Shown here: piece by piece, positions 10,556 to 62,629 of the stretch | Layout of the letters: each line of letters starts with the position of its first letter | How positions within the stretch are numbered: position 1 is the stretch's first letter | Source of the DNA: an uncultured Lachnospiraceae bacterium | GTDB lineage: Bacteria > Bacillota > Clostridia > Lachnospirales > Lachnospiraceae | DNA: 64,000 nt | Direction: 5' to 3' | Assembly (NCBI GenBank): GCA_946403075.1 | Contig: CAMIYN010000001.1 | Span: 7,014-71,013, forward strand | Made by a program: the position numbers and the translations under genes | Notes under the pieces: model-generated | Database searches by the model: none | Told to the model about the DNA's origin: nothing | What the model saw: only the letters and a program-made list of their open reading frames with translations

Positions 10556-12094
10556 TTAATTGATTTTTTCATTAACTACCTCCCCATACAACTTCCTAAA
10601 ACTTTCAATAGAATTTTTTATTGTATCATAATCTACACAATAGGCAATTCTCACATATCCACTAATTCCAAAAGAACTACTTGGGACAAGTAATAAATTA
10701 TATTTAAGTGCAGTTTTTGAAAATAGTCTATCATCGCAAATAGGGCATTTCACAAATAAATAAAATGCACCATCAGGCTCTACAAATTTGTATCCTATCT
10801 CTCTCAATCTGCTAGTTAAAAATTCTTTATTTTTTTTATACAAATTTATATCGGAATTATCATCTATACAATTTGAAACTACATACTGAAATAAACTATT
10901 TGCACATACATAACCCATACTTCTACCAGCACCCATTATTGCATAATATAATTCATCTGCCACACTGCAATTTTTATTAACAACAATATAACCTATTCTC
11001 TCTCCAGGCAGAGACATTGATTTTGAAAAAGAATACTCTACCAAACTATTATCATAATAATTTGTAATAAATGGATATTTTTTATCTACATATAATAACT
11101 CTCTATATGGTTCATCAGAAATCAAAAAAATACTTTTATTGTATTCTTTCTCTTTTTCATTTAATACATTTACTATACCCTTTATTACATCTTCAGTATA
11201 AAAAACACCTGTTGGATTATTTGGTGAATTTATCAAAACTGCTTTTGTGTTTTTATTTATTTTTTGCCTCAAATCATCCATATCAGGATAGAAAGTATCT
11301 ATATTTGATTTTGCGACAACTAATTTTCCATTTGCATTTTCTACAAATACTTTATATTCTGGGAAATATGGGGATATAACTACTATTTCATCCCCTTCGT
11401 TTATTAAACTTTTTAATGTGATTGTGAGCCCTGCAGCTGCACCAACAGTCATATATATTTTATCAAAAGAAACATCTGCCCCATATTTTTTATTTAAACT
11501 ATTAGCAATTTTTTTTCTAGCTTCTATATTCCCTTGAGCTTGAGTATAACTATGTAAATATATTCCATCACTTTCATTTATTAAATTTATAATTTCTTTT
11601 TTTACTGATATTGGAGCAGGGATATTGGGATTCCCAAGTGAAAAATCATAAACTTTATCACTACCATATTTTTGTTTTAAAATTATGCCGTTTTCAAATA
11701 AATCTCTTATTTCAGATCTATTGCTACCAAGTTCAAGCATTTTCTTATTTATATTAGCCCCTACGATTACCTTTTTTGTCTCTTCAGTTGATATGGGTGA
11801 TTCACATCTGCAATCATCTCTTTCATCACTAAATTGGGCTCGCAAAGCTTCACCACTACGGTTATCGCTTTTGTTCCTACTATTATCTATTTTATCACTA
11901 TATTGGGCTCGCAATGCTTCGCCCCTACGATTATCGTTTTCGCCACTATGATTATCGTTTTCGCCACTATGATTATCGTTTTCACCACTACGATTATCGT
12001 TTTCACCACTGCAATCATTTCTTTCGCTACTACAATTATTACTTTCGCTACTACAATGTTCCTTCTTTTTTTTATTTAAATTATCAAAATCCAT
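10556..12094 (-). CDS. Class I/II pyridoxal-phosphate aminotransferase (aspartate/aromatic type) with a 118-aa repeat-derived N-terminal extension
   Basis: The core from MLELGSNRSEIRDLFENG...FSLGNPNIPAP ... SFSKSMSLPGERIGY ... is a typical aminotransferase fold I (SxSK Lys motif). The ATG at 12094 is 1 nt after the plsC stop (TAAAATG). An alternative canonical-length start is ATG 11740. Confidence 0.8.
   Translation of the reverse strand: MDFDNLNKKKKEHCSSESNNCSSERNDCSGENDNRSGENDNHSGENDNHSGENDNRRGEALRAQYSDKIDNSRNKSDNRSGEALRAQFSDERDDCRCESPISTEETKKVIVGANINKKMLELGSNRSEIRDLFENGIILKQKYGSDKVYDFSLGNPNIPAPISVKKEIINLINESDGIYLHSYTQAQGNIEARKKIANSLNKKYGADVSFDKIYMTVGAAAGLTITLKSLINEGDEIVVISPYFPEYKVFVENANGKLVVAKSNIDTFYPDMDDLRQKINKNTKAVLINSPNNPTGVFYTEDVIKGIVNVLNEKEKEYNKSIFLISDEPYRELLYVDKKYPFITNYYDNSLVEYSFSKSMSLPGERIGYIVVNKNCSVADELYYAIMGAGRSMGYVCANSLFQYVVSNCIDDNSDINLYKKNKEFLTSRLREIGYKFVEPDGAFYLFVKCPICDDRLFSKTALKYNLLLVPSSSFGISGYVRIAYCVDYDTIKNSIESFRKLYGEVVNEKIN
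11836..12066. repeat. Two GC-rich repeat cores plus seven tandem 21-bp units, inside the 5' end of the aminotransferase ORF
   Basis: Cores are GGGCTCGCAAAGCTTCACCACTAC (11836-11859) and GGGCTCGCAATGCTTCGCCCCTAC (11905-11928). From 11920 to 12066 there are 21-bp units CGCC(C/A)CTA(C/T)GATTATCGTTTT that decay progressively. They are translated as SGENDN(H/R) heptads and RGEALRAQ. Confidence 0.9.
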
Positions 12095-12095
12095 T

Positions 12096-12845
12096 TTATT
12101 TATTAATCCCCAACTTCATCAATTTTTTTATCTCATTCATTGCATATACTGAAACTCTATCAGTATATTCACTATCTAAATCTTTTACAAAAAAACTTTT
12201 TCCTATTATGACTTTTACTTTTGTTTTTTTGATTATAGGAAAATGTTTTTCAAAAACATCATCTGTATTTAAAAATGCAATGGGAACTATCTCACATCCT
12301 GTTTTTTTTGCTATGCTAAAACTTCCCTCTTTAAATTCAAGTAAATCTAATTGATTTTCATTTTTATTTCTTGTTCCCTCTGGAAAAATCCATACTGAAA
12401 TTCCATTTTGTATATTTTTGATAGCAACTATTATTGATTTCATAGCCTCTTTTATATTTTTTCTATCTATAAATATACAATTAATTTTATCCATCCATAT
12501 TTTTAATAGGAAAAACTTTTTTAACTCATCTTTTGACATATAACAAACTTTATCTCTATATATCCCATATCCTGCTATAATATCAAAAAAAGACCTATGA
12601 TTTGATATTAAAAGTTTACTTACTCCATTATTTAAATAAGTTTCAATATTTTCTTTTCCTATTACTTCTACATTGACACCAGAAATAAACAAAATCACAT
12701 CAAAAACTATATTTATAATTCTTTTATAAAATTTATATTCTAACTCTTTATCAAAAATAGATAAAATAAACCCTATAAGTAAACTAAGTTGCCCCACAGT
12801 AAAAAACAATATCAAAAAAATTATTATTAAAATTAATCTAATCAT
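12096..12845 (-). CDS. plsC: 1-acyl-sn-glycerol-3-phosphate acyltransferase
   Basis: N-terminal TM helix, then NHRSFFDI (HX4D) and IFPEGTRN motifs. Confidence 0.8.
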   Translation of the reverse strand: MIRLILIIIFLILFFTVGQLSLLIGFILSIFDKELEYKFYKRIINIVFDVILFISGVNVEVIGKENIETYLNNGVSKLLISNHRSFFDIIAGYGIYRDKVCYMSKDELKKFFLLKIWMDKINCIFIDRKNIKEAMKSIIVAIKNIQNGISVWIFPEGTRNKNENQLDLLEFKEGSFSIAKKTGCEIVPIAFLNTDDVFEKHFPIIKKTKVKVIIGKSFFVKDLDSEYTDRVSVYAMNEIKKLMKLGINK

Positions 12846-21615: not shown

Positions 21616-22709
21616 TTATCTCTATCCATTATAAAGTTTATAAAAAATTTATAAAAATTTAATTTATATTTATTTACACTTTTCAAATTATCTATATTAA
21701 TATTTATATTCTCTTTTATTTTTTTAATTTTATCTCTTGTTTTTTCTGTCCCAAGTTTTTTAGCAAGTGTAAGTTTATGATTATTTGCATCAGAATTTGT
21801 TTTTTTGCCGATTATTTTTTCATCTCCAACTATTTCAAGTAAGTCATCAATTAACTGATATGAAAAACCTACATCTGTTGCAATTTTTTTTATTAAATCA
21901 ACATTTTCTTTATCATCATTTTTTGAAAATATTATACCAATCAAAAATGCAGCCAAAATCAACTTACCAGTTTTTTTATCATACATATATTTTAAAGAAT
22001 CAATATCTATATCTTTGCCTGTGTAATAAACATCAAGTAATTCTCCATATATCATTCCATTATATCCAGTAAAATCACTCAACATAAAATTTGCTCTATC
22101 AATTTTATTCATTAATTCAAAAAAATATTCTCTATTTATATTTTTATTAATTGCAATATTATTTTTAATATAGTTTATATTATTAAAAGCCTCTGCAAGT
22201 AATGCATCCCCTGCAAGTATCCCAAAACTCTCTCCATACTTTTTCCATGTGCTCTCTTTTCCTCTTCTAATCTCATCATTATCAATCGCTGGCAAATCAT
22301 CATGTATCAAACTAAATGTATGTATCATTTCTATTGATAACATAAAATGTTCTATCACTTGTATATCAAAAAAATCAAATATATAACTATTTAAAAATAT
22401 AAAAATTGGTCTTAATTTTTTACTTGAAGTAATGACTGAATATTCTATTATTTTATATAAAAACTCATTTTTTTCATTTTTATCACTGAATTTCAAAAAA
22501 AACAATTTATTAAAATAATCTAAAAATAATTTAAAAAATGACTCTAAAATCTCTGTTTTCTTTTTATCATTAGTAGTATCTATAAAATATTTTATATTTT
22601 CATCTAAATAATTAACAACTCTATCTCTTTCAATAATTTCACAATCAAAATATGTATATTTAAATATATTTAAATCTTCATTTGAGTTTTTTTCATTACT
22701 CAATTCCAT
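21612..22709 (-). CDS. ispA: Polyprenyl (farnesyl/geranylgeranyl) diphosphate synthase with N-terminal extension
   Basis: FSLIHDDLPAIDNDEIRRGK (first DDxxD) and YQLIDDLLE (second). About 70 extra N-terminal residues compared with typical IspA. Confidence 0.75.
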   Translation of the reverse strand: MELSNEKNSNEDLNIFKYTYFDCEIIERDRVVNYLDENIKYFIDTTNDKKKTEILESFFKLFLDYFNKLFFLKFSDKNEKNEFLYKIIEYSVITSSKKLRPIFIFLNSYIFDFFDIQVIEHFMLSIEMIHTFSLIHDDLPAIDNDEIRRGKESTWKKYGESFGILAGDALLAEAFNNINYIKNNIAINKNINREYFFELMNKIDRANFMLSDFTGYNGMIYGELLDVYYTGKDIDIDSLKYMYDKKTGKLILAAFLIGIIFSKNDDKENVDLIKKIATDVGFSYQLIDDLLEIVGDEKIIGKKTNSDANNHKLTLAKKLGTEKTRDKIKKIKENININIDNLKSVNKYKLNFYKFFINFIMDRDK

Positions 22710-22911
22710 TATCTATAACCTCTAATTTTTTTTCTACTCTATCAATTATCTTTTTTGCATCTTTTACGAGTTTTGCTCCCATCTCATAATACTTAATGCT
22801 ATCTTCAAGCCCACACTTATCACTTTCAAGTTTTTTTATTAACTCATCTAATTTTTTAAAAGTTTCCTCAATATTACCTTTTTCAATATTTTTAGTTTTT
22901 AGATTTCTCAT
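22696..22911 (-). CDS. xseB: Exodeoxyribonuclease VII small subunit
   Basis: 71 aa. FEETFKKLDELIKKLES....LEDSIKYYEMGAKL is the XseB pattern, in the conserved position before ispA. Confidence 0.8.
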   Translation of the reverse strand: MRNLKTKNIEKGNIEETFKKLDELIKKLESDKCGLEDSIKYYEMGAKLVKDAKKIIDRVEKKLEVIDNGIE

Positions 22912-22954
22912 AACCTTACTCCTTTTTCATCAATGATTCTTATTATAGTTAAAT

Positions 22955-23153
22955 GGGCTCGTGATGCTTCGCCCCTACGATTAACTCTACTTTCTTGCTT
23001 CGGGCTCGTTTAGGGCTCCCACTGGTTCGCCCCTACGGCCCCTACGGTTAACTCTACTATCTTGCTATAGGCTCGTGATGCTTCGCCCCTACATTTTTGG
23101 GTTCGTCCCTACGACTAACTCTACCATCTTGCTTCGGGCTCGCGGTCTCCTAC
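22955..23153. repeat. Array of about five GC-rich repeat units filling the xseA-xseB intergenic gap
   Basis: Cores at 22955-22978 (GGGCTCGTGATGCTTCGCCCCTAC), 23013-23036 (GGGCTCCCACTGGTTCGCCCCTAC + GGCCCCTAC) and 23070-23092. Diverged copies at 23098-23135 and 23136-23153. Linkers are GATTAACTCTAC(T/A)(T/A)TCTTGCT. Confidence 0.9.
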
Positions 23154-23166
23154 GAAACCTACAATA

Positions 23167-25251: not shown

Positions 25252-25521
25252 ACGAAACTCCTTTTCTTTTAAGCTATTTATATAATACTACAAAAATTTT
25301 AATCTATAAGCCAATCTATTATTTTTTCTTTTTCTCACTACCACCAAAATCATTTATGAGTTTTTCACAATTTGTAAAATCAATACTCATAATTTCCCCT
25401 TTCGTTTGTTCTTAATAGTTTATCATATTTTATATATTTTGTTAATATTTTACACAAAGAAAAATAATGGTAAATAGCTAAATACTATATTAATTATTTG
25501 TTTTCATAAAAACATAGGTCT

Positions 25522-27549: not shown

Positions 27550-27635
27550 TTTTTATATCTCCCTTTTATAAATATTTTTTATTTATTTTTTTACATAAAC
27601 ACCATACAAATTATGCTATTTACTATTTTTCAACA

Positions 27636-27886: not shown

Positions 27887-27895
27887 TAATATATA

Positions 27896-28198: not shown

Positions 28199-28256
28199 TT
28201 TATTTATAAAAAACTATAATCTATAATTTTTTATCTAACCTCCTTTTTTTATATTA

Positions 28257-29258: not shown

Positions 29259-29280
29259 ATGTTTTATTTTACATAATAAA

Positions 29281-50100: not shown

Positions 50101-53100
50101 ATAATTATCTTCTATTGCTATATCGTTCTCAAATTGTAAGGCAGTTGAATTTTCTATTTTGAATATATTTTCTCTTACATCCACACCACTTACTGACATT
50201 GTATTTATTGTGAGTTTTGAATTGTCTAATCTAACAAGATTAGAAAACTCCCCACCCTCTACTATAAATTCTGTTATATATTCATCTACATTTACTTCAT
50301 TTGCATTTATATCACTCAAACTTATTAGCATTTGAGTAGTCTTATATCCTACAAACTTAACTTTTGCAAGTGCAAACTCTACACCATTACCCACAATGAC
50401 ACTATTACTCTTTGTTCCAGTTGTTCTCTGTGTAAATGTTGCATTTATTGCTTTAAAACCATTACCATTTATTATTCTATCTGCTACTACATCTATCTCT
50501 GTCTTTCCATATATTCTTCCTTTTACACCAGTAAATACATTGTTGCTACCTAAGTTTGTATATACTGCCTTTTCTTCTTGACAGTTTGTGATTACCACTT
50601 CATACTGCGAACTTCCTGTTGCTTGGAATCTTACTCCTGTTAAGTTAAACCCATTTAAGCATATTACAAGTTTTCCCCTAACTGTTATCACTGTGTCAGT
50701 ATTCTTTGTTATATCTGTCCCAAGATAATAATACCCTTGTCCTCTTGTTATTGCTTGTTCTACACTATCTGTGTCTCTCCACTCTGCATATACTTCACTA
50801 TTACTTCTATGTTGTGCTACTCCTGTATGTTCACAATCAAGCTCATTTATTTGTCCACAATCTTTATGCTTATGACTTCCATCATCATCTACATATGTCC
50901 ATACTGCTCTCAGTACTACTGTTCCACCATTTACTCCTAACCATTCTCTTACTTCATCTCTTGGCCTAAATGTATTTCCTATCTGAACATTATTACTACT
51001 TACATTATTCCCATTTTTATCTATTATTCTCACTACTTCCCAGCTTGCTGATTTGTAATGTTCTCTTATAAAATTAGATGCTCTTATTATAACTGAATCA
51101 TAATAGTATGGCTCTTGTGTTTCTATTTTACCCTGTGCTGCTTCATGTCCTGATTCATATTCTATCTTATATGTATACTCCTCCCACAAACCATATAGAT
51201 ATACTACATCTACTCCATTTATAGTTTTTCTCGCATAATCCAAATCTGGTATAGGTGAACCTGCCATAAATGCTACTACCTTCTCTTCACTGTATGAAAT
51301 ATTTTCTATCGGAGTCCATCCCACAAACCTAAATTGCTTTGCTTCAAATCTATTATTACTCAACACCTGTGTACTCATTATTGATCTTACATCTTGTGAA
51401 TACTCATCCCCCTCTACTTCTACTGTTCCTCCTCTATGTTTTCTTGCAATTCCACCTCTATACACAATTCTATAACCTTGCACTGTTACTATTTTTACAT
51501 CATCTTCTTCTAGTATTACTGACAATAAATTATAATTATGAAGTCCTGTGTCTGCATTAAATACTTTCTTGTATTCTTCCCTTGCATCCTTGCCTTGTGT
51601 TATATGTTGATTGGTAAACTCTTTATATATTGTTCCAAGTGTTACATTCGTAAATGCCACTGTCATACTTGATTTTGTTGTGTCAAATCTACACCCTTCA
51701 TATGTCTCCAAAAAACCATTGCTATTATTAGCCAATACTTCTACAACTTGCCCAGTACTACTTTCACTTCTATTATTTTTTACATTTAAATATCCATTAC
51801 CTAGTTTTATCACAGAAGCACTATTGCCATCCACTAACCTTAGTCCTATTCCCCTTGTAGTAATGTAATTATTACTTATATCTAGATTCCCAAGAATTAT
51901 CGCTTCTCCATTATAATCTAACCAAAATATAGCATTATTCTCTACATAGTTATTCGCTGTTATTAATCTATTTTTAGTTATTAATATATCTGTATCTAGT
52001 GCTACATGTACATTCCCTGCTCCTTGACTAGCAACTATTGATACTATCCTTCCCCTTCCTGTATTTCCATTTATATCCAGTTTCTTTCCCTGTGTCATTG
52101 TAAATTTTGTAACCTTTAATATATTGCCAGTGTTTGCTGTATTATCTTTTATATCCAAATTTCCATCAATAGCGATTGTTCTTATGTCAAACAAATCACT
52201 ACTTACTGTGTTATTATTTATATAATTATCCCCATTAAATGTAATGTCTGTATTATAAAATATATTTCCTTCACTAACGACTTTCTCTACTACACAATCT
52301 TTTAATACCATTCTACTATCATTTATAACAAACTCATCTATATCACAATCATGAACACTTATTGTATCCCATACATTAAATGAGTTTAGAGCAAATGTAG
52401 CAATACCGCTTGCCTCTACTTGTATATCTACATTATATAATACTGTCGCACTTATTTTATTAAATATATATGCTATATTAGTTTTACTTGTTGTTATTTT
52501 TATTTTTTCTTTTCCACCATATATATTACAATACACCCCACTAAACATTGATAAATTGTTATCTTCATGATTAATTTCTATCTCTCCATACATATCTTTA
52601 CAGTTAGATAGATTTACTATTCCCTCACCATTTATCTCTATATTTTGTAGCATATTCCCCGCCAAACATATATTTAATTCTACATTGTTTGGAACTGTTA
52701 ATTCTGTTATCTTATCTTCTTCCCCTGTAATTTGTGTCAAAAATACATATATTTTACTTCCACTATAAGCATCTGCCACTCTTCTCGTTAAATCTTCTAT
52801 TGCAGCAATTGCTGTATATCTATAATTTGAACTATGACTATCTCCCAAATGATTGCAGCTTCCAGTTACACCACATACTTTATGTGTATGATTTGCATCT
52901 ACTGGCATCCAATTTACTTCAAGTACTACTACACTACCATCTCTCTCTGTAAGTCCACTCTTTTTCATATTAGACCCTATGAGCACTATCTCAGGACTTA
53001 TTACCTCTTCTACTTCTACTCCGTTTTTATCTTTATATCTTACCTTCTTTACTTTCCAACCATTTGCTACTGTCCCCTCTCTTGCCTCATATGTGTTTCT

Positions 53101-56100
53101 CTTTAATCTCTCATCAGCAAAATAACTTCCTGTATCATCATCCATTTTCTCTGTTGTCGTATATCCTGCTGTATATTCTATGCTATACTCTACTTCCTTC
53201 CATATTGCAAATACTGGTACCACTCCCCGCTTTGTCGCAAGACTCGGTATCTCTACTAATGGCTGATAGAGAGTTCCTGTTGTATCAGTCTCCTGTAAAC
53301 TCCAACCCATAAATGCAAATCCATCTGCATAATAATAATTTTCGTTTAATTTTACATTCTCATTTAACTCTGCTAATGTATTGCTTACTACTATTCCTTC
53401 ATCTAATTTAACTTCATGCTCATTTCCATTGAAATCTATTGCCCTTCCTTTGTTATATGTTATTTCATATTCTAGATTTTTCCATACTGCAGTCAAAACT
53501 ATTCTTGCTCCATCTATATCAACAAGTCCTTTTTCACTATTGCCTGTAAATCTTTTACCAAGTATTTCCGATTCTACTAAATCTTTTCCATCAGCATCAT
53601 AAATTTTTGTTATCGTCCAACCCACAAAATCAACTGTTTCTTGTTCTGGATACATATTCCTCAAATCAATATTTTCATAATATTCATACTCTCCATCTCT
53701 AATTGTTACATCTATTATGTCTTCCCTTCCAGATTTAAACTCCAAGTTATATTTCTTGTTAGCCCATACTGCTGTAAGAATTATCTCGCTTAAATCATTA
53801 TTTATACCATCTTCTACTACTTCCCCAACATTATACCTATATCCATTTTCACTTACCCAACCTACTACCTTAAATCCTGCAGCTTTTATTATTTCTGCAT
53901 TTTCTTCTGTTAAATTTGTGCTTAAAACTACACTATCTCTATAATAGGCTATCTGATCAGGGTGTTCTCCCTTTGGTATTACATCTGAACCCCCAACACT
54001 TATCACTTCTGATCTATACTTTATAGTATATGTCTTTTGCTCCCATATTGCATATATAAGTATTTCTTCATCATCCTCCACTTCTTCAAATGCAGCCCGT
54101 CCTTCTCCTGGCTTTGTTATATCGCTTTTACCATTTTCATCTACACCTTCCTTATAAGGGCTCCAACCTACAAGTTCAAAACCATCTACCATATATGGAT
54201 TCTCCGTCTTATTTAAAAATGTTATCACTCCTCCTAACGACTCTACTTCTTTTATATAGTTATCAGGTCCACTTATATCTCTTATACTACCATCTCTCCC
54301 CTTTGCTACTCCTCTTTGATAATTTAACCTATACTTTCTATCTATCGCTTCCCCAGGTATTCCTATCCTTATATCCTTTGTCTCTGTTACATATACTACA
54401 AGCCCTTCATTTTCCCTAACTGAGTTAAATGAAATTCCTACCTGTTCTAATTTATTATTTTGCATTATGAGTCCTCTACCATTTGTCCTATTCGTGAATA
54501 GGACATCAACATCCATCTTGTTATCTGTTTCATTTCCTCTCATAAATGCTTTTACATTTTCACTATATATCCCTGCTCCTATCTTTTCCCCTATCCTACT
54601 CTTTACATAACCATACTCAGTAAAGTCAAGATATGCTGACTTCGTTAGATATATCCCTGATAATATTCCACTACTTAAATCTGTATAATTACTATATTGA
54701 TTATTTATTAACTCTAATCCTGCTCCCTTAAAATATATACTACTATCATCTGTTACTTCCACTATCCCTTGTGGACTCTTATTACTATTAATTGTATTCT
54801 GCTTTATCTCAAATTTATCCCCTACTATATAAATATTCTTTACATCATTCCCTACTGATATTATCTCTCCATTAAATGTTGAATTATTTATACTTAATCC
54901 TGACACATAAAAATCATCAGCACTCTTTATTAATTTACTTCCACTATCTACCTTTGCTTTTAAACTTGTCTTCTCTATCACTACTTTACTTGCTTTCTCT
55001 ATGAAATTTGCATTATTTTTTAATTCAAAATTTCCATCAACTCCATACATCCCTATTTCTCTATTTGTATTTATGAAATATCCATCTACTCCATTTACTG
55101 TTATTCCTTTTCTTCCCATTACATAGATTTTTAAATTATCTCCTATCTTTACATTCGTTAACTTACTTTCCTTTGGCTCTCCATTATACTCACAATTTAC
55201 CAAATATAAAATCCCAGAACCTGTAAAGGTTACATTTGTCAATGAATACCCTGATAGACATAGTGATACTTCATTATTTATTGCCACCTCTTGATTACTT
55301 ATATCTCTACTCAGTGAAAATGCACGGCTTTCATTATTAATATCACTTAATGCATTTATTGCTTTATATTTATATCTTGTTGTATGTTCCTCCCCTATCT
55401 CTTTACAACTTATAGAACAACCTTCCTTTACTCCACATAATAAATGTGTGTGCATATTCTCTATTACTACCATTTCCTCTATCTTGTATTCATTTACTAT
55501 TAAATTCTTATAAAGATTTGTATCTGCTTTAAACATTTCTCTATATTTTGTGACATCCTCCACTGTCTCTTCATTCCAGTTCGTTACTATCGTGCCACTT
55601 CCATCATCAGTAGAAAATGCTACTGTCATCTCTGTGTCCTTTGATAGTTTACCACCTGCACCTTCTACTAACTCTATGAAGCCTTCGCTATTTTCACTGT
55701 AGACTTGATACATAACACCATTTGAATTTCCTTTATTATCTTTTACTTTTATAGTGGTATTACCTGCTTTTATACTCTGAGAAGACCCAAATCTCATAGC
55801 AGCAAATATTCTATTAGAAAAATTGTTTTCTGTTATCTTATTATTACTTATATTTAATTTTACATCATTTGATATATCAAATGCACCATCAGATGAATAA
55901 TCTACAATCGCTATATCTATATTTCCAGCTACGATAGTATTTCCACTTATATCTATACTACTATTTTTTATTGCTACACCATTTCCAATAGAAAGCATCC
56001 CTGCTCTCTCCACTTTAGAGTTTGCTATTTTTATATTTGATTTTTCAATGTTTACATTTTCATTCAATGCGACTAATGGATAATTTCGATTCTCCCCACT

Positions 56101-59100
56101 TATATTTATATCCCCTATAAATTTTACATTAGAAAAATCGTATAATATATTCTCACCATTTCCGCGATATCCACTTATATTTGTTTCACTTATTGTCCAT
56201 CCACTATAATTTTCACCATAATGCACTGCTTGTCCCAAATTCACCGAGCTGCTTGATGACGATAATTCTGCTCCACATACTACTGCTTTCTTGCCAAATG
56301 CCAAACTATCACACTTTACTATTATCCTACTTTTAAGACTTATTAAATTCTTTTCATCAATCTTGCCACACATATATCTTATATATATTCTATCACTATT
56401 TACACCCCTATTAAAATCAGCAAGCTCCCCATTTGTAGCATTTACTACTGCCTCATATTTGTCAGTTTCTGTTATCTCATATAAACTTTTTGAAGTATTA
56501 CTTGCTATCACTTCAACTGCGGATACTGGATAACCAGAACCTTGTGTCGTTGTTTTATATAGATACACAAAATTTCCTTCACTGCATCCTTCATTTAGAT
56601 TCCAAGCATTCCCATCAAAATCTGTTATCGCTACATAATCTTTATTTGATAATCCTGTAAAGTCTTTTGGGTTTCTACCATCATCATTAAACCATCTCTC
56701 TCCTATGCCCCAGATTGCTTCACTCTTATTCGTTGTCATTTGATACCCGAGATACAATTCTGCTCCATCTGTGCCTTGGTTTAAATTTGTCTCAAGCATC
56801 ACATATCCCTTACTATCAAATGTGCTTTTTGCAGTTTGTTTTGACATTTTTAGGATTTTTACATCTTTTATGTATTCGTCTGCTTCCGTTCTTTTTACTT
56901 CTACTTCTACCAATAATTTTTGTATTATATTAACTGTCAAATCTTCACTAAAAATATTCACTGAATCATTTTTTAAAGTTGCATTACTCTTTGTAAAACA
57001 GTTAACTATATTAACTTTTCCACTTCCTTCAAATGAAACTCCTTCTATTTTTTTCCCTCTTAAACACAAATTTAATGTTCCATTTACTGTTATAGTTTTC
57101 TTTTCCACTATATTTTGCTTTAGATAAAAATTACCATTGTCAACTATATCAGATATTTTAGTAACCCCTTCAAACAAGACCTCTTCATTTAAATCTATTC
57201 CATTATTTAAAAATTCTGTTTTTATCTCGCTTGAATGATTACATCTATTTTTTATACATCCACACAAACTATGTGTGTGTGTAGCATTATTCCACACTGG
57301 ATATAATATTATCTTTGACCCTATAGCGGCTCCTGGTATTCCTTTAGTAAGTTTTTCTCTCAACTCAAAATCTATATTATCAGAACCTTCTGTAAGGGTC
57401 CAACCTATCTGTTTTACTTCTTCTTCCTCACTCTGAATAGTCCACATCTTATCAAATAATGTTATAGATTTATCGATAGTAGCATATTGAATAATGCTTG
57501 TTTCTTGTCCATTACCCAAAACACTCTTCCACTCCATACTATCTGGTGCAGATAATCTATATTCTATAATATAATCTTTATTGCCTGCACTATAATCCCC
57601 TGGGAACCACATAGAACTTGGGCCGTAGCCACGACTACTAGGATTATACACCTGAAATTTAAAAGGCATAAGTGGATTATGATTATTAAAATTTGCTCTC
57701 GCCTCCCTTATAGGAAAATCATTATCTGGATAAAAAAATCCTTCTTTCCCATACAAGTAAGCCCAACTATATTGCTTCTTTAACTCATCATCTCCATAAA
57801 TTCTTTGCACATATCCTGGACGAGGAGAGTTGGGGTCGTCGACCCAGTACAAACCTGTTCCATCATATTTCTCAGGAGTGTCTTTGTATATTTCATACAA
57901 GTAGTTTGGTATCAGGTATTCATCGTTATTGTTACTTCTATGAGTTTTTAAAACAATACACCCCTCTCTCCCAAATCGATTATCTTTTGTGACATTACCA
58001 AATATTTGTCTCGTCTCATTTTTATCCTCATATACATATGAAAAAGTAATAGATGAATTCCCTTCATTTGCAATAGGACCACATCTTTTTACATCATCAT
58101 TTTCTAATTTAAATAAATGATCCTTCATAATAAAATAATGATTTCTCCAAGTATCATTTCTATAATTTATTAAAGAGAATGTTAGTCCAGCAAAATAATC
58201 CCTATACGAAGAAATACCTGCAGCACTCATATATCTATCAGGAAACTTTGGAGGCTCAAGAATTATCCAAGGGCTTATTAAACCTCTTTCCATTTCAGCT
58301 TTAGTTCTTCCTATTTCAAGTTGTCCATTTGTGATGTTATACCAATCTCTTAACATAATCACATCCAAAGATGTAGGTCTTATTACATGTGGATCATCTG
58401 TAGTGTGTATAAATGTTTTAAAATGAGTATCATAATTAAATATCCCTTCTACAGATGCAAGGGTATTATCCTTTATAACCAAAGAGCCACCTATTCGAGT
58501 GTCCGTTCCATTTAATCTCATACCAACTGGATATGATGTTGGAGAATACTCTCTACTCTCGTCAATATAGCATGGATTAATATTATAATTACATGTATTA
58601 TTTTGAATTCTGACACTTGCAACAGCCTGAATTGTAGTATAGAGTCTTGCACGATAAGGGCTGGCCTTTATCCATGGTCCCCATTCAACTTGATTTACTA
58701 TACTCCCATATCTTTCAATTGTATAATTTCTGCTTTTGTATATCAAACGAGATCCAATTGTACTATTATTCTCTATGTTTATTGCAGGTGCCCTGAGAGT
58801 GCAATCATAAACTTTTGCCGAAGTAAAATCTTGTACTATATCAATAGAATCCTTTAAATATATGTATTCAGCAAGCACACCATCCCCTACTATTGTACTA
58901 CTTGTCCTTGGTGTGAATACGATGTCAGCATAGTCAAGTGCTGACCCTTCACCCTTTTCTTCAAGTCTAAACTCCATTAAAGAATTCGCATCTTTAGGAC
59001 CTGGCACATATAAATCTCTCAATTCTCTAATTTCATCACCACTAATATACCCATATCCAATTTCCCACTGGTCTTCAGCTTTATTCAACCATTCTCTTAA

Positions 59101-62100
59101 TTCTCTTGATGGATCATAATGTATATAAGGATTATAATCAAAATACTTCCTATACTTTGCATTAATCACTTCTCTCACAAGATAATATTTGTTTTTTTGA
59201 TGACAATCGGAAAATGAAACTCCACATATTTCAACTTTAGGATGATAATTACCATAATCATAATAAGTGCCCTCAGCAATTTTCTCTGGATACAGATTTT
59301 GATTCCCATAATGCCAATATAAGCCTGAAGAACAATTTATAAATTTCACATCACTATGAAGAAAAGTATTCTCAACTCTATATATTTCCAAAATAGGTTG
59401 ATATGCTATAGTTTTTCCTTTATTTGTCATATTAAAATTCATAAATTTAACATCTTTTAAATAAACTTTGTTTAGACCATCAAATAATAGTGGAATATCG
59501 TTAGCAACACTAATCCTACCATATGATTTATAATTCATTTGAAAATCATTATAATCAAATACACAATTATATATATAACATGCTGGATGATTATTTAAGG
59601 TTCTAAAACTTCCTGGTCTTATGTGAACTGGTGCTCTAAATTTTATTCCTCTTAAACTCCATATAAAATTCGGTAGTTTATGTCCATACATATATCTACC
59701 ACACCACCCACAGTATCCTATTTTTGCTCGTTCACCACACTGGTATTTCCAGGGCTTATCCGGTTCCAAGATTGTTTCTCTCCATATATATTCCCAATCA
59801 TCTGCATCAACATATACATCACACCATTTTGTTAAACGATCACTAGTTGGCATAAAATCTATACAACCACGATTAAATTCTTGAGTTCCACCAGATATTA
59901 TACTTAACGAACCAAACCAAGCATTGGGCGAATAGAAAAAACAACTCTTTTCTGGGTTACTATATATTGTTGCTACATTGTTTTTACAGTTATATATATG
60001 TAAAGTAAACCATGGGTTGCCAACAACATAAAAATTTTTAATATTTTTTCCATTTAAGCAAATCGTCATTTCTAAAGAAATACCCCTTTTCAACGGAATT
60101 GGGATTTCACCGTTTACAAAAAAAGTATTCCAATCAAACATATCTTGATCTATATAAAATCGATTGTAGAAAGAAGTTGAGGTGCTATAGGGATGACCAC
60201 CACGAATAAAATGCTCATAATAATAAGCTTCATCATAATACCAATCGATATCCGATATATAATATGGAGTTTTAGGAAATGTAGATATTGGAGCATAATA
60301 ATACGAGTACTTTTTATGATAAGGGTCACCAAATGTCTCGTAAAACTTGTTATCTGCATCATTTTTGTATTTATGAGAACCACTTGAGGGAGTATGTTCA
60401 ACCTCTCCATATTTAATTCCTCTTTTTATATTTGGCAACTCAAAACCATCTTTTTCATTTTCTTCAATCTTCTCCCCATTATCTTCGACAGCACCAAGTT
60501 TTTTACTTCTCGCCACTGTCTCTACTTCTTGTTCACTACTACCCAATATCATTTTTCTAATAATTGTTTTATAATTTTCTATTACTTTTCCTAATACTTC
60601 TTCATCTTTTATATAATTGTTTATAGTAAATATTTTTAATTCATTTTCATCATATTCTTCAGCACCTTCACTTTGCAAAGGCAAATCATCTTGTAGAGAT
60701 GTCGCTTCCGTGTTAATCTCATCATTTTCGATGTTTTCATTTTCTACATACTCTATTTCTGATTTATCCATAGGGACAAAGCTATGTGATTCTTCCATCA
60801 CTTTTTCACCACTTATGTCATCATGTAGAGATGCTCCATCTATACCCACATTTTCTGCATCCGTTTTCGCACCATGCTCTCCATCATTTCCATACTTATT
60901 TTGTCTGTTTGGTACATGTATCGCACTGGACTCATCATTATTTATCTTCATATCATCACTATCGATGTTTTCATTTTCTAAATATTCTGCATCAGCCTCA
61001 AAAATGCTATATTCTTCATCAACTTCGTTTTTTGCATGTTCTACTTCGGGATCCCAAGGATTTGTCTCTTCTGTGTCTTCTTTTTCGTTTTCTTCTTTTA
61101 TTATCCCCTCAAGTTTTAATGCCTCATAACTTCTATCATATAATTCTCTCAAAACACTATTAGCAATTTCTGCTGGCATATATATTGAACTCAATTCTTC
61201 TTTACCAGTATAATTTTCATACTTATCTACACCACTACTTATTGCAGCCTCTACTTCTTTTATCAATCTATCCTTATCTAATTGAAAACTTATCTCAGCA
61301 TTGTTATCTTCATTTTTTATTGATTCTATAACTTCTTTTTCGTTATATATATTCTTCCACACTGCTGGGACAACTACTACTTTTTTAAGCCCATAATCAT
61401 CACTTATTACAACAGACACAATAGGACTGAGAAGTAGTTCTTCGTAAAGCAATGCTTCTTTTATTTCTTGTTCTTCTTTGTAAGGAACAGAAATCTCTTG
61501 CCTTTCATCTGTTCCTTGCATCAAAACTTTTACTATCTTCCAGTTATTTTCAGTTATTCCACTCTTTTGGTTTTTTATAAATAAATCTATATAGTTAGTT
61601 ATGTTTTCATCTATTTTTGTTTCATCATCATTATTTTCTATACTTGCTTCACTTGCTGTAGATGGTGAAGCAGCTGTGCCATTGTCTATAGTATTTATAT
61701 CGGGCACGGGGTACTTCACCTCTACATCATTTGGATTCGCCCCTACAACGGCATCTTCTGCATTTTCTATATTCTCGTTTTCTTCATTTGTCTCATCGGG
61801 CTCGCGATGCTTCGCCCCTACATTATTTTCGTTCGCCCCTACGACTTCGTTGTCATTGTTCTCATTGTCATCAGCGGGCTCCCAATGGTTCGCCCCTACA
61901 TTATTTTCGTTTGCCCCTACAACGGCATCTTCTGCATTTTCTGTATTCTCGTTTTCTTCATATTCCCCATCGGGCTCGCGATGCTTCTCCCCTACGGTGT
62001 TTGGGTTTGTCTCTACAGTATCATCGCTTTTGTTTTCCTTATTCTCATTTTCTAGATATTCTCCATCGGACACGGGATACTTCGCCCCTGCATTACTTGG

Positions 62101-62484
62101 GTTCTCCCCTGCAACGGCATCTTCTGCATTTTCTGTATTCTCGTTTTCTTCATATTCCCCATCGGGCTCGCGATGCTTCGCCCCTACGGCTTCTACTTCT
62201 ATATCTTCATCAATTCCATTTAACTCATCACTATTTTCACCTTCAGCAAAAAACTCACCACCTTCATTTGGTGCTGTGGTATTTGTATCTTCCACGGTTT
62301 CGCTACTACTATCACTTTTTGGTTTTGTGCTAGCAAGTGTTGACACAGCATTACTGCTTATCAACATACTTAATAGTAGCACAAAAGAGATAACTCTCTT
62401 TAAGTTACCCACAGTAAATATTTTTGCGGTAAAACTTTTTACTCCTTTTTTAATTTTTAAAAAGTTAGTCATATGTGTTTTCAT
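47173..62484 (-). CDS. Giant (5103 aa) modular secreted/cell-surface protein. Signal anchor, acidic repeat region, ~1000-aa Tyr/Trp/Cys-rich region, five HxH..CG...CL(N/S/R/A)G + beta-helix-like modules alternating with Listeria-Bacteroides (Flg_new-type) repeats, then C-terminal cell-wall-binding-like repeats
   Basis: A single uninterrupted 15.3-kb frame in a stop-rich AT genome, with strong SD AAAGGAGGT 7 nt before the ATG. N-terminal hydrophobic segment VISFVLLLSMLISSNAVSTLA. Repeated ..GF.(V/L)VGW.. ~70-aa units (e.g. GFELVGWSPYKEG, GFKVVGWVSENG, FRFVGWTPIE, GFRIVGWKSS, GFTLVGYTNG). The C-terminus ..NGESYFFKETGEMA.. resembles choline/cell-wall-binding repeats. Confidence 0.85.
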   Translation of the reverse strand: MKTHMTNFLKIKKGVKSFTAKIFTVGNLKRVISFVLLLSMLISSNAVSTLASTKPKSDSSSETVEDTNTTAPNEGGEFFAEGENSDELNGIDEDIEVEAVGAKHREPDGEYEENENTENAEDAVAGENPSNAGAKYPVSDGEYLENENKENKSDDTVETNPNTVGEKHREPDGEYEENENTENAEDAVVGANENNVGANHWEPADDNENNDNEVVGANENNVGAKHREPDETNEENENIENAEDAVVGANPNDVEVKYPVPDINTIDNGTAASPSTASEASIENNDDETKIDENITNYIDLFIKNQKSGITENNWKIVKVLMQGTDERQEISVPYKEEQEIKEALLYEELLLSPIVSVVISDDYGLKKVVVVPAVWKNIYNEKEVIESIKNEDNNAEISFQLDKDRLIKEVEAAISSGVDKYENYTGKEELSSIYMPAEIANSVLRELYDRSYEALKLEGIIKEENEKEDTEETNPWDPEVEHAKNEVDEEYSIFEADAEYLENENIDSDDMKINNDESSAIHVPNRQNKYGNDGEHGAKTDAENVGIDGASLHDDISGEKVMEESHSFVPMDKSEIEYVENENIENDEINTEATSLQDDLPLQSEGAEEYDENELKIFTINNYIKDEEVLGKVIENYKTIIRKMILGSSEQEVETVARSKKLGAVEDNGEKIEENEKDGFELPNIKRGIKYGEVEHTPSSGSHKYKNDADNKFYETFGDPYHKKYSYYYAPISTFPKTPYYISDIDWYYDEAYYYEHFIRGGHPYSTSTSFYNRFYIDQDMFDWNTFFVNGEIPIPLKRGISLEMTICLNGKNIKNFYVVGNPWFTLHIYNCKNNVATIYSNPEKSCFFYSPNAWFGSLSIISGGTQEFNRGCIDFMPTSDRLTKWCDVYVDADDWEYIWRETILEPDKPWKYQCGERAKIGYCGWCGRYMYGHKLPNFIWSLRGIKFRAPVHIRPGSFRTLNNHPACYIYNCVFDYNDFQMNYKSYGRISVANDIPLLFDGLNKVYLKDVKFMNFNMTNKGKTIAYQPILEIYRVENTFLHSDVKFINCSSGLYWHYGNQNLYPEKIAEGTYYDYGNYHPKVEICGVSFSDCHQKNKYYLVREVINAKYRKYFDYNPYIHYDPSRELREWLNKAEDQWEIGYGYISGDEIRELRDLYVPGPKDANSLMEFRLEEKGEGSALDYADIVFTPRTSSTIVGDGVLAEYIYLKDSIDIVQDFTSAKVYDCTLRAPAINIENNSTIGSRLIYKSRNYTIERYGSIVNQVEWGPWIKASPYRARLYTTIQAVASVRIQNNTCNYNINPCYIDESREYSPTSYPVGMRLNGTDTRIGGSLVIKDNTLASVEGIFNYDTHFKTFIHTTDDPHVIRPTSLDVIMLRDWYNITNGQLEIGRTKAEMERGLISPWIILEPPKFPDRYMSAAGISSYRDYFAGLTFSLINYRNDTWRNHYFIMKDHLFKLENDDVKRCGPIANEGNSSITFSYVYEDKNETRQIFGNVTKDNRFGREGCIVLKTHRSNNNDEYLIPNYLYEIYKDTPEKYDGTGLYWVDDPNSPRPGYVQRIYGDDELKKQYSWAYLYGKEGFFYPDNDFPIREARANFNNHNPLMPFKFQVYNPSSRGYGPSSMWFPGDYSAGNKDYIIEYRLSAPDSMEWKSVLGNGQETSIIQYATIDKSITLFDKMWTIQSEEEEVKQIGWTLTEGSDNIDFELREKLTKGIPGAAIGSKIILYPVWNNATHTHSLCGCIKNRCNHSSEIKTEFLNNGIDLNEEVLFEGVTKISDIVDNGNFYLKQNIVEKKTITVNGTLNLCLRGKKIEGVSFEGSGKVNIVNCFTKSNATLKNDSVNIFSEDLTVNIIQKLLVEVEVKRTEADEYIKDVKILKMSKQTAKSTFDSKGYVMLETNLNQGTDGAELYLGYQMTTNKSEAIWGIGERWFNDDGRNPKDFTGLSNKDYVAITDFDGNAWNLNEGCSEGNFVYLYKTTTQGSGYPVSAVEVIASNTSKSLYEITETDKYEAVVNATNGELADFNRGVNSDRIYIRYMCGKIDEKNLISLKSRIIVKCDSLAFGKKAVVCGAELSSSSSSVNLGQAVHYGENYSGWTISETNISGYRGNGENILYDFSNVKFIGDINISGENRNYPLVALNENVNIEKSNIKIANSKVERAGMLSIGNGVAIKNSSIDISGNTIVAGNIDIAIVDYSSDGAFDISNDVKLNISNNKITENNFSNRIFAAMRFGSSQSIKAGNTTIKVKDNKGNSNGVMYQVYSENSEGFIELVEGAGGKLSKDTEMTVAFSTDDGSGTIVTNWNEETVEDVTKYREMFKADTNLYKNLIVNEYKIEEMVVIENMHTHLLCGVKEGCSISCKEIGEEHTTRYKYKAINALSDINNESRAFSLSRDISNQEVAINNEVSLCLSGYSLTNVTFTGSGILYLVNCEYNGEPKESKLTNVKIGDNLKIYVMGRKGITVNGVDGYFINTNREIGMYGVDGNFELKNNANFIEKASKVVIEKTSLKAKVDSGSKLIKSADDFYVSGLSINNSTFNGEIISVGNDVKNIYIVGDKFEIKQNTINSNKSPQGIVEVTDDSSIYFKGAGLELINNQYSNYTDLSSGILSGIYLTKSAYLDFTEYGYVKSRIGEKIGAGIYSENVKAFMRGNETDNKMDVDVLFTNRTNGRGLIMQNNKLEQVGISFNSVRENEGLVVYVTETKDIRIGIPGEAIDRKYRLNYQRGVAKGRDGSIRDISGPDNYIKEVESLGGVITFLNKTENPYMVDGFELVGWSPYKEGVDENGKSDITKPGEGRAAFEEVEDDEEILIYAIWEQKTYTIKYRSEVISVGGSDVIPKGEHPDQIAYYRDSVVLSTNLTEENAEIIKAAGFKVVGWVSENGYRYNVGEVVEDGINNDLSEIILTAVWANKKYNLEFKSGREDIIDVTIRDGEYEYYENIDLRNMYPEQETVDFVGWTITKIYDADGKDLVESEILGKRFTGNSEKGLVDIDGARIVLTAVWKNLEYEITYNKGRAIDFNGNEHEVKLDEGIVVSNTLAELNENVKLNENYYYADGFAFMGWSLQETDTTGTLYQPLVEIPSLATKRGVVPVFAIWKEVEYSIEYTAGYTTTEKMDDDTGSYFADERLKRNTYEAREGTVANGWKVKKVRYKDKNGVEVEEVISPEIVLIGSNMKKSGLTERDGSVVVLEVNWMPVDANHTHKVCGVTGSCNHLGDSHSSNYRYTAIAAIEDLTRRVADAYSGSKIYVFLTQITGEEDKITELTVPNNVELNICLAGNMLQNIEINGEGIVNLSNCKDMYGEIEINHEDNNLSMFSGVYCNIYGGKEKIKITTSKTNIAYIFNKISATVLYNVDIQVEASGIATFALNSFNVWDTISVHDCDIDEFVINDSRMVLKDCVVEKVVSEGNIFYNTDITFNGDNYINNNTVSSDLFDIRTIAIDGNLDIKDNTANTGNILKVTKFTMTQGKKLDINGNTGRGRIVSIVASQGAGNVHVALDTDILITKNRLITANNYVENNAIFWLDYNGEAIILGNLDISNNYITTRGIGLRLVDGNSASVIKLGNGYLNVKNNRSESSTGQVVEVLANNSNGFLETYEGCRFDTTKSSMTVAFTNVTLGTIYKEFTNQHITQGKDAREEYKKVFNADTGLHNYNLLSVILEEDDVKIVTVQGYRIVYRGGIARKHRGGTVEVEGDEYSQDVRSIMSTQVLSNNRFEAKQFRFVGWTPIENISYSEEKVVAFMAGSPIPDLDYARKTINGVDVVYLYGLWEEYTYKIEYESGHEAAQGKIETQEPYYYDSVIIRASNFIREHYKSASWEVVRIIDKNGNNVSSNNVQIGNTFRPRDEVREWLGVNGGTVVLRAVWTYVDDDGSHKHKDCGQINELDCEHTGVAQHRSNSEVYAEWRDTDSVEQAITRGQGYYYLGTDITKNTDTVITVRGKLVICLNGFNLTGVRFQATGSSQYEVVITNCQEEKAVYTNLGSNNVFTGVKGRIYGKTEIDVVADRIINGNGFKAINATFTQRTTGTKSNSVIVGNGVEFALAKVKFVGYKTTQMLISLSDINANEVNVDEYITEFIVEGGEFSNLVRLDNSKLTINTMSVSGVDVRENIFKIENSTALQFENDIAIEDNYRIGEGVINLINQSITNVKMAKVSIRDNKNLKYAIRTAEGTKWISQVDSEINVVGNEFVALNGLQGAVEMYGTIEAGGQINISENTFLVGTGEKAGLLVGSKGLLEIGDANIKVIGNLSDGEIHQVYSLRNDGFMKTKSNSKFKLAESDMEIALADPYTGVVYNNFNEETVLGLNEIDPTERIRAETGGVRKNLSTMITIIDGEEKLIIGKSLAGIKYNLVYNVGEGIGSNGEKYSPSDSSITYNDVEGERIKLKPDNTFTLEGFRIVGWKSSINDNQYEPNAEVSLIEMGVEDSGITITFTAIWVEKTYNIRYNTDDEGATLSVTDDINVGYYKSIELSTDAVEKENCYIKSWKITKVLNKSGNDISYLYNMVGNEYNPGAKIQKFINEDGATIIFTAILEETKVLFSFTINGSIASDGNSKTPSQTSVPSQSIGMGNKITFTDDGAKMKGFTLVGYTNGTKTFKLNTAYDVSTDNFKINIDNNNNYTVNLVSVWEENKYTLKLTKNTDSLISGSDVSQELKYYQRYVIGQTVFRKPGYRINRWKVNKINNVGDTAIDTALANGQITARYYVMPDDTNSITDLPVSQLLDIKDGSIELIAELENTHKHYTNGKGQDTSGNVGKFAYEPLTQGGVSALKTAFYDADNPQSTKMGFFFLTEDIKLTDDMPVNGYAGICLNGYDLDMDGHSFINKGMMYIYICSCRRTEKPGNGGQVIVYDGTAYTDRQPAFDNYTYIYIYAYTLDGGLGYVNINVTPFGTGMNTSTGPNVQTTRENNMSNRRSNAMGSSSSSGEAELNSSGEAPINSRGEPLGARVQDSSDNRRGEPLGARVQDSSDSRRGEVPRAQLQDSSNFKSNLETTKNILNMLYAVSVNNILTDSKVYDSGNFIDANGKLQYIIDDDKLRNGIYKIKIGNKINIYSFDRDGNIETGIKVINGESYFFKETGEMAINEKVRYGNVEYEVNDLGIIKNRIILQL
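47176..47460 (-). other. C-terminal cell-wall/glucan-binding-like repeat region of the giant protein
   Basis: SGNFIDANGKLQYII..., NIYSFDRDGNIETG, INGESYFFKETGEMAINE, VEYEVNDLGII are degenerate aromatic-Gly ~20-aa repeats of the CW_binding_1 type. Confidence 0.45.
47551..47740. repeat. Three full GC-rich repeat units (exact 48-nt period) plus half copies, translated inside the giant ORF
   Basis: Cores at 47568-47591, 47616-47639 and 47664-47687. Half copies GGGGCTTCGCCACTAC (47697-47712) and GGCTTCACCACTAC. Translated as ..SRGEPLGARVQDSSDNRRGEPLGARVQDSSDSRRGEVPRAQLQDSS.. Confidence 0.9.
47887..48015. repeat. Two AT dinucleotide tracts, (AT)8 at 47887-47902 and (AT)6A at 48003-48015, inside the giant ORF
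   Basis: Read directly from the sequence. They encode ..TYIYIYAYT.. and ..MYIYICSC.. Confidence 0.9.
56370..56870 (-). other. Three-fold beta-prism-like (MABP-like) insert within module 1 of the giant protein
   Basis: Three similar segments: GYVMLETNLNQGTDGAELYLGYQ, DYVAITDFDGNAWNLNEGCSEGNFVYLYK, YEAVVNATNGELADFNRGVNSDRIYIRYM. The pattern (GY.v....(D/N)(L/F)N.G....YL.Y) recalls MABP/beta-prism repeats. From memory only. Confidence 0.3.
61702..62187. repeat. Six GC-rich repeat cores plus half copies embedded in ~190-bp tandem repeats, translated in the N-terminal acidic region of the giant ORF
   Basis: Perfect or near-perfect cores at 61798-61821, 61876-61899 (type b), 61972-61995 and 62164-62187. 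Diverged cores at 61702-61725 and 62068-62091. Translated as VGAKHREPDGEYEENENTENAEDA, VGANHWEP, VGEKHREP. Confidence 0.9.
62329..62484 (-). other. N-terminal signal peptide / membrane anchor of the giant protein
   Basis: A basic stretch (KIKKGVKSFTAKIFTVGNLKR) followed by hydrophobic VISFVLLLSMLISSNAVSTLAS. Confidence 0.6.
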
Positions 62485-62549
62485 ATCAACTACCTCCTTT
62501 GTTAAATGGATTGATGTTTATATTTTTATAATTTAATGTTGGATAATTT

Positions 62550-62629
62550 AACTATCTTGCTTCGGACTCGTGGTACTTCGCCCCTACTATTTATTTGGGG
62601 TTCGCCCCTACGGCCCCTACGATTGCAAC
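62550..62629. repeat. GC-rich repeat unit(s) in the leader 70-145 nt upstream of the giant ORF start
   Basis: Linker ACTATCTTGCTTC, core GGACTCGTGGTACTTCGCCCCTAC (62564-62587), then TATTTATTTGGGGTTCGCCCCTACGGCCCCTACG. Confidence 0.9.

Follow-up and report, generated by a model that had tools for sequence, protein, structure and literature searches.

Probable GTAG-tagged REP elements in an AT-rich Lachnospiraceae chromosomal segment

To our knowledge, studies of systems of repetitive extragenic palindromes (REPs) and REP-associated tyrosine transposases (RAYTs) are confined almost entirely to Proteobacteria and a small number of other phyla with normal G+C content. Here we describe a family of short, GC-rich repeats dispersed along a 64-kb stretch of DNA from an uncultured Lachnospiraceae bacterium (contig CAMIYN010000001.1, positions 7,014 to 71,013). 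This whole stretch is referred to below as the window, and coordinates are counted from its first letter; other loci compared with it carry numbers beginning with L. We consider it probable, at roughly 70%, that the repeats are GTAG-tagged REP-type elements, a reading supported by their motif architecture, the covariation of their hairpin, their insertion polymorphism and strand polarity, the copies lying in frame within genes, and the occurrence of near-identical hairpins linked to Y1 (HuH) transposase genes in other bacteria.

A REP is defined by a 5' GT[AG]G tetranucleotide at the foot of a hairpin (PMC6006769; PMC3733652), and the RNAMotif rule for canonical REPs specifies a fully paired basal stem of 7-20 bp (PMC6006769). 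In the REPs associated with TnpA_REP of subclass 2.4, the lowest three pairs of the stem are G-C (PMC6006769), and this subclass is possibly the counterpart of Group 4 among the RAYTs of Bertels et al. 2017 (PMC5581495), a correspondence taken only from the table label '2.4 (4)'. REP-derived TAG stop codons, in-frame REPs within genes and tandem arrays with 5-bp stems have all been published (PMC3733652). Both GTAG and a bulge in the stem are required for cleavage by E. coli TnpA_REP (PMC8266576), and Y1 transposases act on the lagging-strand template (PMC6006769). The hosts of GTAG repeats in a 2013 survey were Proteobacteria, Cyanobacteria, Chloroflexi and the PVC group, with no Firmicutes listed (PMC3733652); some Group 1 RAYTs occur in Clostridia (PMC5581495). 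A string search of the literature for the core of the present repeat returned no paper containing it, and the core is not in the supplements of the 2013 survey.

Architecture of the repeat and its hairpin

A sequence-only reading of the window had described two recurring 24-nt cores, type a and type b, in about 20 copies, joined by a conserved linker of ~23 nt into a 47-nt unit and all sharing one orientation. When both strands of the whole window were searched for the two cores at no more than three mismatches, type a gave 14 matches and type b 13, together 19 distinct full cores that all lie on the + strand; no full core appeared in 100 dinucleotide-preserving shuffles. The same one-sidedness was seen for the 3' half of the core, TTCGCCCCTAC (at most one mismatch; 28 on the + strand, 0 on the - strand), for CCCCTAC heads (32 and 0) and for the linker AACTCTACTATCTTGCT (at most three mismatches; 9 and 0). 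The copies fall at 8-9 loci, amounting to 28-32 heads in the 64 kb, and are thus dispersed and mainly extragenic, as REPs are. The 47-nt tandem unit of core plus linker was recovered by TRF at 27639-27773 in 2.9 copies. With 17 of 24 positions G or C, compared with 24-34% G+C in the window, the core does not reflect background composition. In all these respects the earlier description was borne out, as were the coordinates that it gave for eight loci (11836-11928, 22955-23153, 27636-27886, 31717-31856, 47089-47176, 47551-47740, 61702-62187 and 62550-62629), the first of which extends further, to about 12054, as a degenerate 21-nt array. Its placement of an AT-drifted type b relic, GTAGGGAATGAACCCTTGGGAGTC, at 28731-28754 (- strand), upstream of ruvX, was also correct, with ~19/24 positions matching type b as judged by eye.

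The same reading had not recognised the repeat as REP/BIME, and here it went astray because it had read the antisense strand. On the - strand, every core consists of GTAG followed by a GC-rich imperfect palindrome, as in the published GTAG REPs (PMC3733652; PMC6006769). The consensus on this strand is GTAG-GGGC-GAA-nn-loop-nn-GA-GCCC, with the centre reading GC-atc-GC in type a and CC-agt-GG in type b. Behind the GTAG there is accordingly a 4-bp GGGC/GCCC foot and an internal loop in which GAA faces GA, with juxtaposed G-A and A-G on its flanks. A 2-bp inner stem with a triloop completes the 24-nt unit; across copies from the window and from related contigs, the inner stem measures 2-3 bp and its loop 3-4 nt. 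The three G-C pairs (GGG/CCC) at the bottom of the stem follow GTAG directly, within the spacing of 0-2 nt expected of such a tag.

The hairpin is supported by the alignment of 20 distinct 24-mers, in all of which (20/20) GTAG is invariant. The proposed structure pairs 96.7% of cells, compared with 12-50% in slid controls, and compensatory changes are present at both inner pairs, from G-C to C-G in four sequences and from C-G to T-A in three; none of 500 shuffles reached the observed covariation score or the percentage paired. For both types the predicted RNA fold is ....((((...((...))..)))) at about -9 kcal/mol (-9.2), and its share of the ensemble is 85-93% for two variants with a GC inner stem and 60% for type b. 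Related contigs also contain sister variants, such as GGGCGGATaccATCCGCCC and GGGACGACAtttTGTCGTCCC, that keep GTAG and GGG and have perfect stems of 8-9 bp with fold z-scores of -3.2 and -4.9; variants of this kind, with stems inside the canonical 7-20 bp, occur in L001, L025, L029, L036 and L041.

A regular 24-nt repeat with a 23-nt spacer, or a set of GC-rich hairpins, might bring to mind a CRISPR-like array, intrinsic terminators or an artefact of assembly, and we regard all three as extremely improbable. CRISPR was rejected because the supposed spacers are the same conserved linker at several loci and the scanned genes are housekeeping genes, and Rho-independent termination because no terminator-like site was found at the three clusters within the scanned interval 22000-32500 and no T-run follows the hairpins. 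An Rfam scan of the whole window gave no match at the gathering threshold, so the repeat did not prove to be an RNA family named there; a tRNA scan of the window found nothing, and a plasmid collection showed no similarity to a cluster.

The family is not confined to this region either. In a collection of species-representative genomes, the exact type a core was found in only one other genome, a metagenome-assembled genome (MAG) from goat reticulum labelled Lachnospiraceae, and a metagenome scan with a degenerate core pattern of 18 specified bases yielded 38 loci. Of these, 24 are AT-rich loci (27-38% G+C) with clear members of the family, and several hairpin subtypes often stand next to one another in them. 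The recurrence of the family in independent assemblies and samples means that it is not an assembly artefact. At one locus (L017, 660-685), GTAGGGGCAGAGCCCCTATTTTTG stands after an open reading frame (ORF) and resembles an intrinsic terminator, and therefore not every match to GTAGGGGC is a member of the family.

Insertion sites, strand polarity and coding copies

The genes scanned in the window are ordinary chromosomal ones, among them xseA, RNase J, ruvX, a polyprenyl synthase, an RND pump, modA, feoB, znuA and ABC transporters, and their nearest named protein relatives are from MAGs labelled Lachnospiraceae. As the sequence-only reading had stated, copies lie both between genes and in frame within them, and no transposase or integrase accompanies them: none was found among the scanned genes or by synteny with L002, and terminal inverted repeats are absent from the cluster sequences.

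Three of the intergenic clusters can be compared directly with L002, a syntenic contig from a relative that has the same gene order and an XseA 68% identical to that of the window. The cluster between xseA (23167-24402) and xseB, at 22955-23153 (- strand), comprises three full cores, half copies and three linkers, and occupies a junction of about 245 bp that measures 2 bp in L002 and 2-6 bp across L002, L003 and L004. Between the DUF1292 gene (27896-28198) and the RNase J gene (25522-27549), the cluster at 27636-27886 (- strand) contains the 47-nt unit (x2.9), a type b core and an AT-drifted relic; this junction is about 346 bp long, compared with 12 bp in L002 and L004. The third cluster, at 31717-31856 (- strand), lies between an ORF at 31869-33284 and a gene for an EamA-family transporter at 30687-31604 and holds three cores, one with a 1-nt deletion; the gap before the EamA gene is 44 bp in L002 and about 264 bp in the window. 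In each case the extra length is filled by the repeat cluster, and the clusters are thus insertions relative to the syntenic relatives. L003, whose XseA is 85% identical, has a tight xseA-xseB junction yet carries related copies at other sites, and therefore the positions of copies turn over among close relatives. At these divergences (XseA identity 68-85%), the relatives are too distant to give the insertion boundaries or the target site at base level. The RNase J gene (25522-27549, - strand) has an N-terminal extension of ~130 residues before the start of the family profile; because the L002 ortholog is similarly long (657 aa), this extension is a trait of the lineage and not caused by the repeats.

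The GC skew of the + strand is strongly negative along the whole window and essentially all real genes lie on the - strand, which therefore combines the roles of sense strand and G-rich strand. As GC skew is usually interpreted, a G-rich - strand is leading-strand sequence and the lagging-strand template. The polarity of the family was counted over clusters from the 24 AT-rich metagenome loci, L001, L003 and the window. In 36 of 44 clusters GTAG stands on the strand that is locally G-rich, and relative to the neighbouring genes it is in sense in 30 clusters and antisense in 7; L003 and L029 account for most of the exceptions.

A polarity of this kind could also arise if the repeats were RNA elements selected by the host in operon spacers, serving as barriers to 3'-exonucleases, as RNase processing sites or as translational couplers; their one-way orientation would then reflect a function in mRNA, and they would have spread by duplication and gene conversion. 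All copies in the window are indeed in sense to the genes, with the intergenic ones between co-transcribed genes; sense clusters outnumber antisense ones as just given; the predicted ensemble consists mostly of the RNA hairpin (85-93%, -9.2 kcal/mol); and REPs are known to affect mRNA stability (PMC3733652; PMC3479197). However, close relatives manage with junctions of 2-12 bp at the same sites, copies in coding regions are read in two frames, and those of L029 and L003 include the opposite orientation. The invariant, unpaired GTAG, moreover, has no obvious role in RNA yet is the known guide of Y1 transposases, and elsewhere Y1 transposase genes have the same hairpin at their borders or inside them. 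We therefore regard host-selected RNA elements as an unlikely explanation of the family, although such a role is compatible with secondary co-option of mobile REPs.

Coding copies occur in a giant ORF of 5103 aa (47173-62484, - strand), which has no Pfam domains and carries REP-derived arrays at both ends. The N-terminal array (61702-62187, - strand; 96-nt period) follows a signal-peptide-like N-terminus, and its translated frame gives VGAKHREP, VGANHWEP and VGANENN; the array in the C-terminal linker (47551-47740, - strand; periods of 48 and 24 nt) is read in a different frame, as RGEPLGAR. Directly downstream of the ORF lies a further cluster (47089-47176, - strand), one copy of which, at 47153-47176, provides the stop codon: the TAG at 47173-47175 is part of its GTAG. 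Upstream of the ORF is an intergenic cluster (62545-62629, - strand) consisting of a linker, a core and half copies. The last ~100 residues of the giant ORF resemble, by reading only, repeats of the cell-wall-binding type.

The remaining coding array in the window, at 11754-12054 (- strand), is a degenerate one in the 5' part of an ORF for a pyridoxal phosphate-dependent aminotransferase (10556-12094), where it forms a putative N-terminal extension of 110 residues; the aminotransferase family profile begins only at residue 115. Within this array are two full cores (11905-11928 and 11836-11859), a relic head (11754-11764) and a run of AT-drifted heads repeating every 21 nt, GTAGTGGCGAAAACGATAATC. 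The extension would consist of degenerate REP heads, giving HSGENDN and RSGEALRAQ repeats at periods of 21 and 69 nt. A REP head covers the position at which the canonical start of this ORF would be expected. By TRF, the array periods within ORFs are 21, 24, 48, 69 and 96 nt, all multiples of three, compared with 47 nt in the intergenic array, which argues that the copies within ORFs are translated and kept in frame. In L029, a related AT-rich contig, the gene for HemZ, a coproporphyrinogen dehydrogenase (510-2234, - strand; TIGR03994, 448 bits), holds six in-frame copies, which have the opposite, CTAC-sense orientation and are read as AFAPT peptides.

Elsewhere in the window, 8225-9244 (- strand) encodes a D12-class N6-adenine DNA methyltransferase with no obvious restriction partner among the scanned neighbours.

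Y1/RAYT genes and the proposed mode of spread

Six-frame ORFs of the window and of the retrieved loci were searched for Y1/RAYT transposases with E. coli TnpA_REP (checked against 4ER8), IS608 TnpA, the proteins encoded in L009 and L011, a profile built from 25 RAYT-like proteins and a Clostridia-type Y1 consensus, which has thousands of homologues. The only matches were in GC-rich loci, where the hits of the 18-base pattern include three loci on or beside Y1/RAYT genes. One is an IS200-like Y1_Tnp gene (L011, 8352-9000; Pfam E 1.2e-21) on a contig of 55% G+C, bounded by terminal inverted repeats of ~95 bp that contain GTAGGGGCGAACCAGTTTGAGCCC; by our own count, 21 of 24 positions of this hairpin match type b of the window. 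In the RAYT-like genes of L009 (with an identical copy in L042) and of L045, GTAGGGGCGAAGC...GCTTCGCCCCTAC is embedded in the gene itself and separates the HuH motif from the Tyr motif. The gene shared by L009 and L042 matches the NCBIfam REP-associated tyrosine transposase model with E 7.8e-15, below the curated cut-off, and its GTAGGGGCGAAGCAAGAG...CTCTTGCTTCGCCCCTAC lies in frame. Many homologues of this type have been named 'REP element-mobilizing transposase RayT' by JGI, and between their HuH and Tyr motifs they have a hypervariable insert of the form VGA...APT/SPL. In L045, which holds a homologue from a Calditrichaceae MAG, GTAGGGGCGAAGCATTCC...GGAATGCTTCGCCCCTAC lies within the gene; a similar element follows closely downstream, and a kinase gene contains another copy. 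Near-identical hairpins therefore flank or sit inside Y1/RAYT genes in other phyla. L009, L042 and L045 show exactly the behaviour published for subclass 2.4, and the family of the window shares features of that type in its GGG...CCC foot and in its in-frame copies in the giant ORF and in HemZ of L029.

The RAYT-like gene with the double-foot REP (L009, 495-1028, - strand, and identically L042) has TGA where the conserved Trp of the WQR motif would be expected, which may point to a pseudogene or to an error in sequencing. As a possible partner, the Y1 protein P0261, the one homologue of the Clostridia-type consensus that was examined, was rejected, because at its loci (L048-L053) it is flanked by a different hairpin, GGAGACAAGGGGACGGTTCTCTTGTCTCC. 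There, an identical 248-aa Y1_Tnp occurs in six different neighbourhoods on Clostridia contigs of 32-39% G+C, and the GGAGACAAGGGGACGGTTCTCTTGTCTCC hairpin shows partial duplications of its head, like the half copies of the window.

Several observations weigh against the identification as GTAG-tagged REPs. Neither the 64-kb window nor the AT-rich related loci searched yielded a Y1/RAYT gene. The copies of the window have a 4-bp basal and a 2-bp inner stem and so fall below the canonical rule of at least 7 bp (PMC6006769), and the fold z-scores of these bulged forms are modest, at -1.3 to -1.5. Inverted pairs of the REPIN/BIME kind are absent from the window, where all copies run head to tail, and no consistent CT cleavage dinucleotide is visible beside the copies. 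Finally, the polarity is not absolute, given the opposite-sense copies in L003 and in the HemZ gene of L029, and because gene direction and skew coincide in these genomes, polarity due to replication is inseparable from polarity due to transcription.

The lack of a RAYT in the sequence searched, the stems shorter than those of canonical REPs and the strict head-to-tail order would also suit an unrelated new family of small repeats, spreading in the manner of Rickettsia palindromic elements (RPEs) or miniature inverted-repeat transposable elements (MITEs) by a mechanism other than Y1, with GTAG and the likeness to REPs being convergent. So would the conserved 23-nt linker, which has no counterpart in the REP descriptions compared, and the fact that the 2013 survey names no Firmicutes among the hosts of GTAG repeats (PMC3733652). 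Against this explanation, GTAG is invariant and there are no terminal inverted repeats or target duplications; the units are direct repeats, and with no terminal inverted repeats visible in the cluster sequences a MITE was rejected. In addition, the head GTAGGGGCGAAGC/GTAGGGGCGAAC is common to elements physically tied to Y1/RAYT genes at three independent loci, and chance is very unlikely to have placed 3 of the 38 loci of an 18-base pattern at or next to Y1 genes. We consider an unrelated family quite improbable.

If the repeats are GTAG-tagged REPs, we envisage them as non-autonomous elements that would be nicked and rejoined as single-stranded DNA by a Y1 transposase of the RAYT/TnpA_REP type, whose gene would lie elsewhere in the genome and which most likely belongs to subclass 2.4. 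Such an enzyme would act on the lagging-strand template, and this would explain why GTAG is almost always on the G-rich strand. Local head-to-tail amplification of the 47-nt core plus linker would build the arrays, and half copies such as GTAGGGGCC before a full core may be by-products of repeated cleavage and rejoining or of slippage. The elements would be transcribed within operons as stable RNA hairpins: because every cluster is located inside genes or between genes of the same direction, transcription is probable and would add hairpins of about -9 kcal/mol to the RNA. Copies in tolerant linkers would be translated as short peptides, with one copy donating a TAG stop. A more far-reaching proposal is that AT-rich Clostridia harbour a class of their own of strand-polar, REP-like elements moving as single-stranded DNA, of which the family would be the example. 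Such elements would have a minimal 24-nt bulged hairpin with tandem G-A mismatches, a fixed linker, head-to-tail propagation only and one orientation relative to the replication fork; they might lack a classical RAYT or use a Y1 enzyme of a new subclass, and would be routinely coding, with the period shifting from 47 to 48 nt in genes. We think this unlikely.

Comparison with known systems

The GC-rich copies are trivially detectable and run almost all one way along the replichore, and could thus serve as a clean natural test of single-stranded DNA insertion into the lagging-strand template. The frame-preserving 48- and 96-nt arrays, the donated stop codon and the six insertions in a relative's HemZ gene provide clear examples of REPs becoming protein. 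In practical terms, such repeats are expected to fragment metagenome assemblies and to create spurious or extended ORFs in the annotation of MAGs.

RPEs, the closest likeness proposed by the sequence-only reading, are roughly 100-150 bp long and are not known outside Rickettsia. As to behaviour the comparison holds: both are small, abundant repeats of an AT-rich genome that are tolerated in frame inside genes. As to identity it does not, since the tag of RPEs is CGTC (PMC3733652), compared with GTAG here, and the present unit is 24 nt long, or 47 nt with its linker.

The ends of IS200/IS605 elements such as IS608 and ISDra2 share with our repeats a subterminal hairpin, a 5' tetranucleotide guide and reading on one strand, and their integration into the lagging-strand template likewise gives them an orientation polarity (PMC6006769). 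Unlike these elements, the copies of the window have neither a transposase nor distinct left and right ends. In L011, a hairpin like type b stands in the ends of an IS200-like element.

E. coli REP/BIME sequences (TnpA_REP, RAYT Group 2, PDB 4ER8) resemble the family in having GTAG and an imperfect palindrome with stem mismatches, and in forming clustered composite arrays with conserved linkers. However, the REPs of a BIME alternate in orientation, whereas the copies of the window are all direct, and E. coli REPs are ~35 nt long with longer stems and show no sequence similarity to ours beyond GTAG and the G/C-rich foot. The GTAG-1 repeats of Thauera sp. MZ1T (PMC3733652) also have short stems (5 bp), form tandem arrays, lie beside operons and occur in clusters translated as tens of amino acids inside ORFs, although Thauera is a GC-rich betaproteobacterium and the sequence is different.

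The best agreement is with the GTAG REPs of subclass 2.4 (Quentin et al. 2018, PMC6006769), which fall in the GTAG superfamily described by Di Nocera et al. 2013 (PMC3733652). They too have a 5' GTAG at the foot of a GC-rich hairpin with three G-C pairs; they are dispersed, mostly intergenic and downstream of genes, have in-frame copies, use the TAG of the REP as a stop codon and show several hairpin subtypes side by side. The head GTAGGGGCGAAGC is common to the window family and to the double-foot REPs inside the RAYT-like genes of L009/L042 and L045. What differs here is the Clostridia-like host of about 28% G+C, the short bulged stem (4+2 bp), the exclusively head-to-tail arrangement in one orientation, and the 23-nt linker with its 47-nt unit. 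We assign the family to the known GTAG REPs, with a host group and an arrangement that had not been catalogued before, and a GTAG REP family in gut Clostridia of such low G+C content would widen the host range of these elements.

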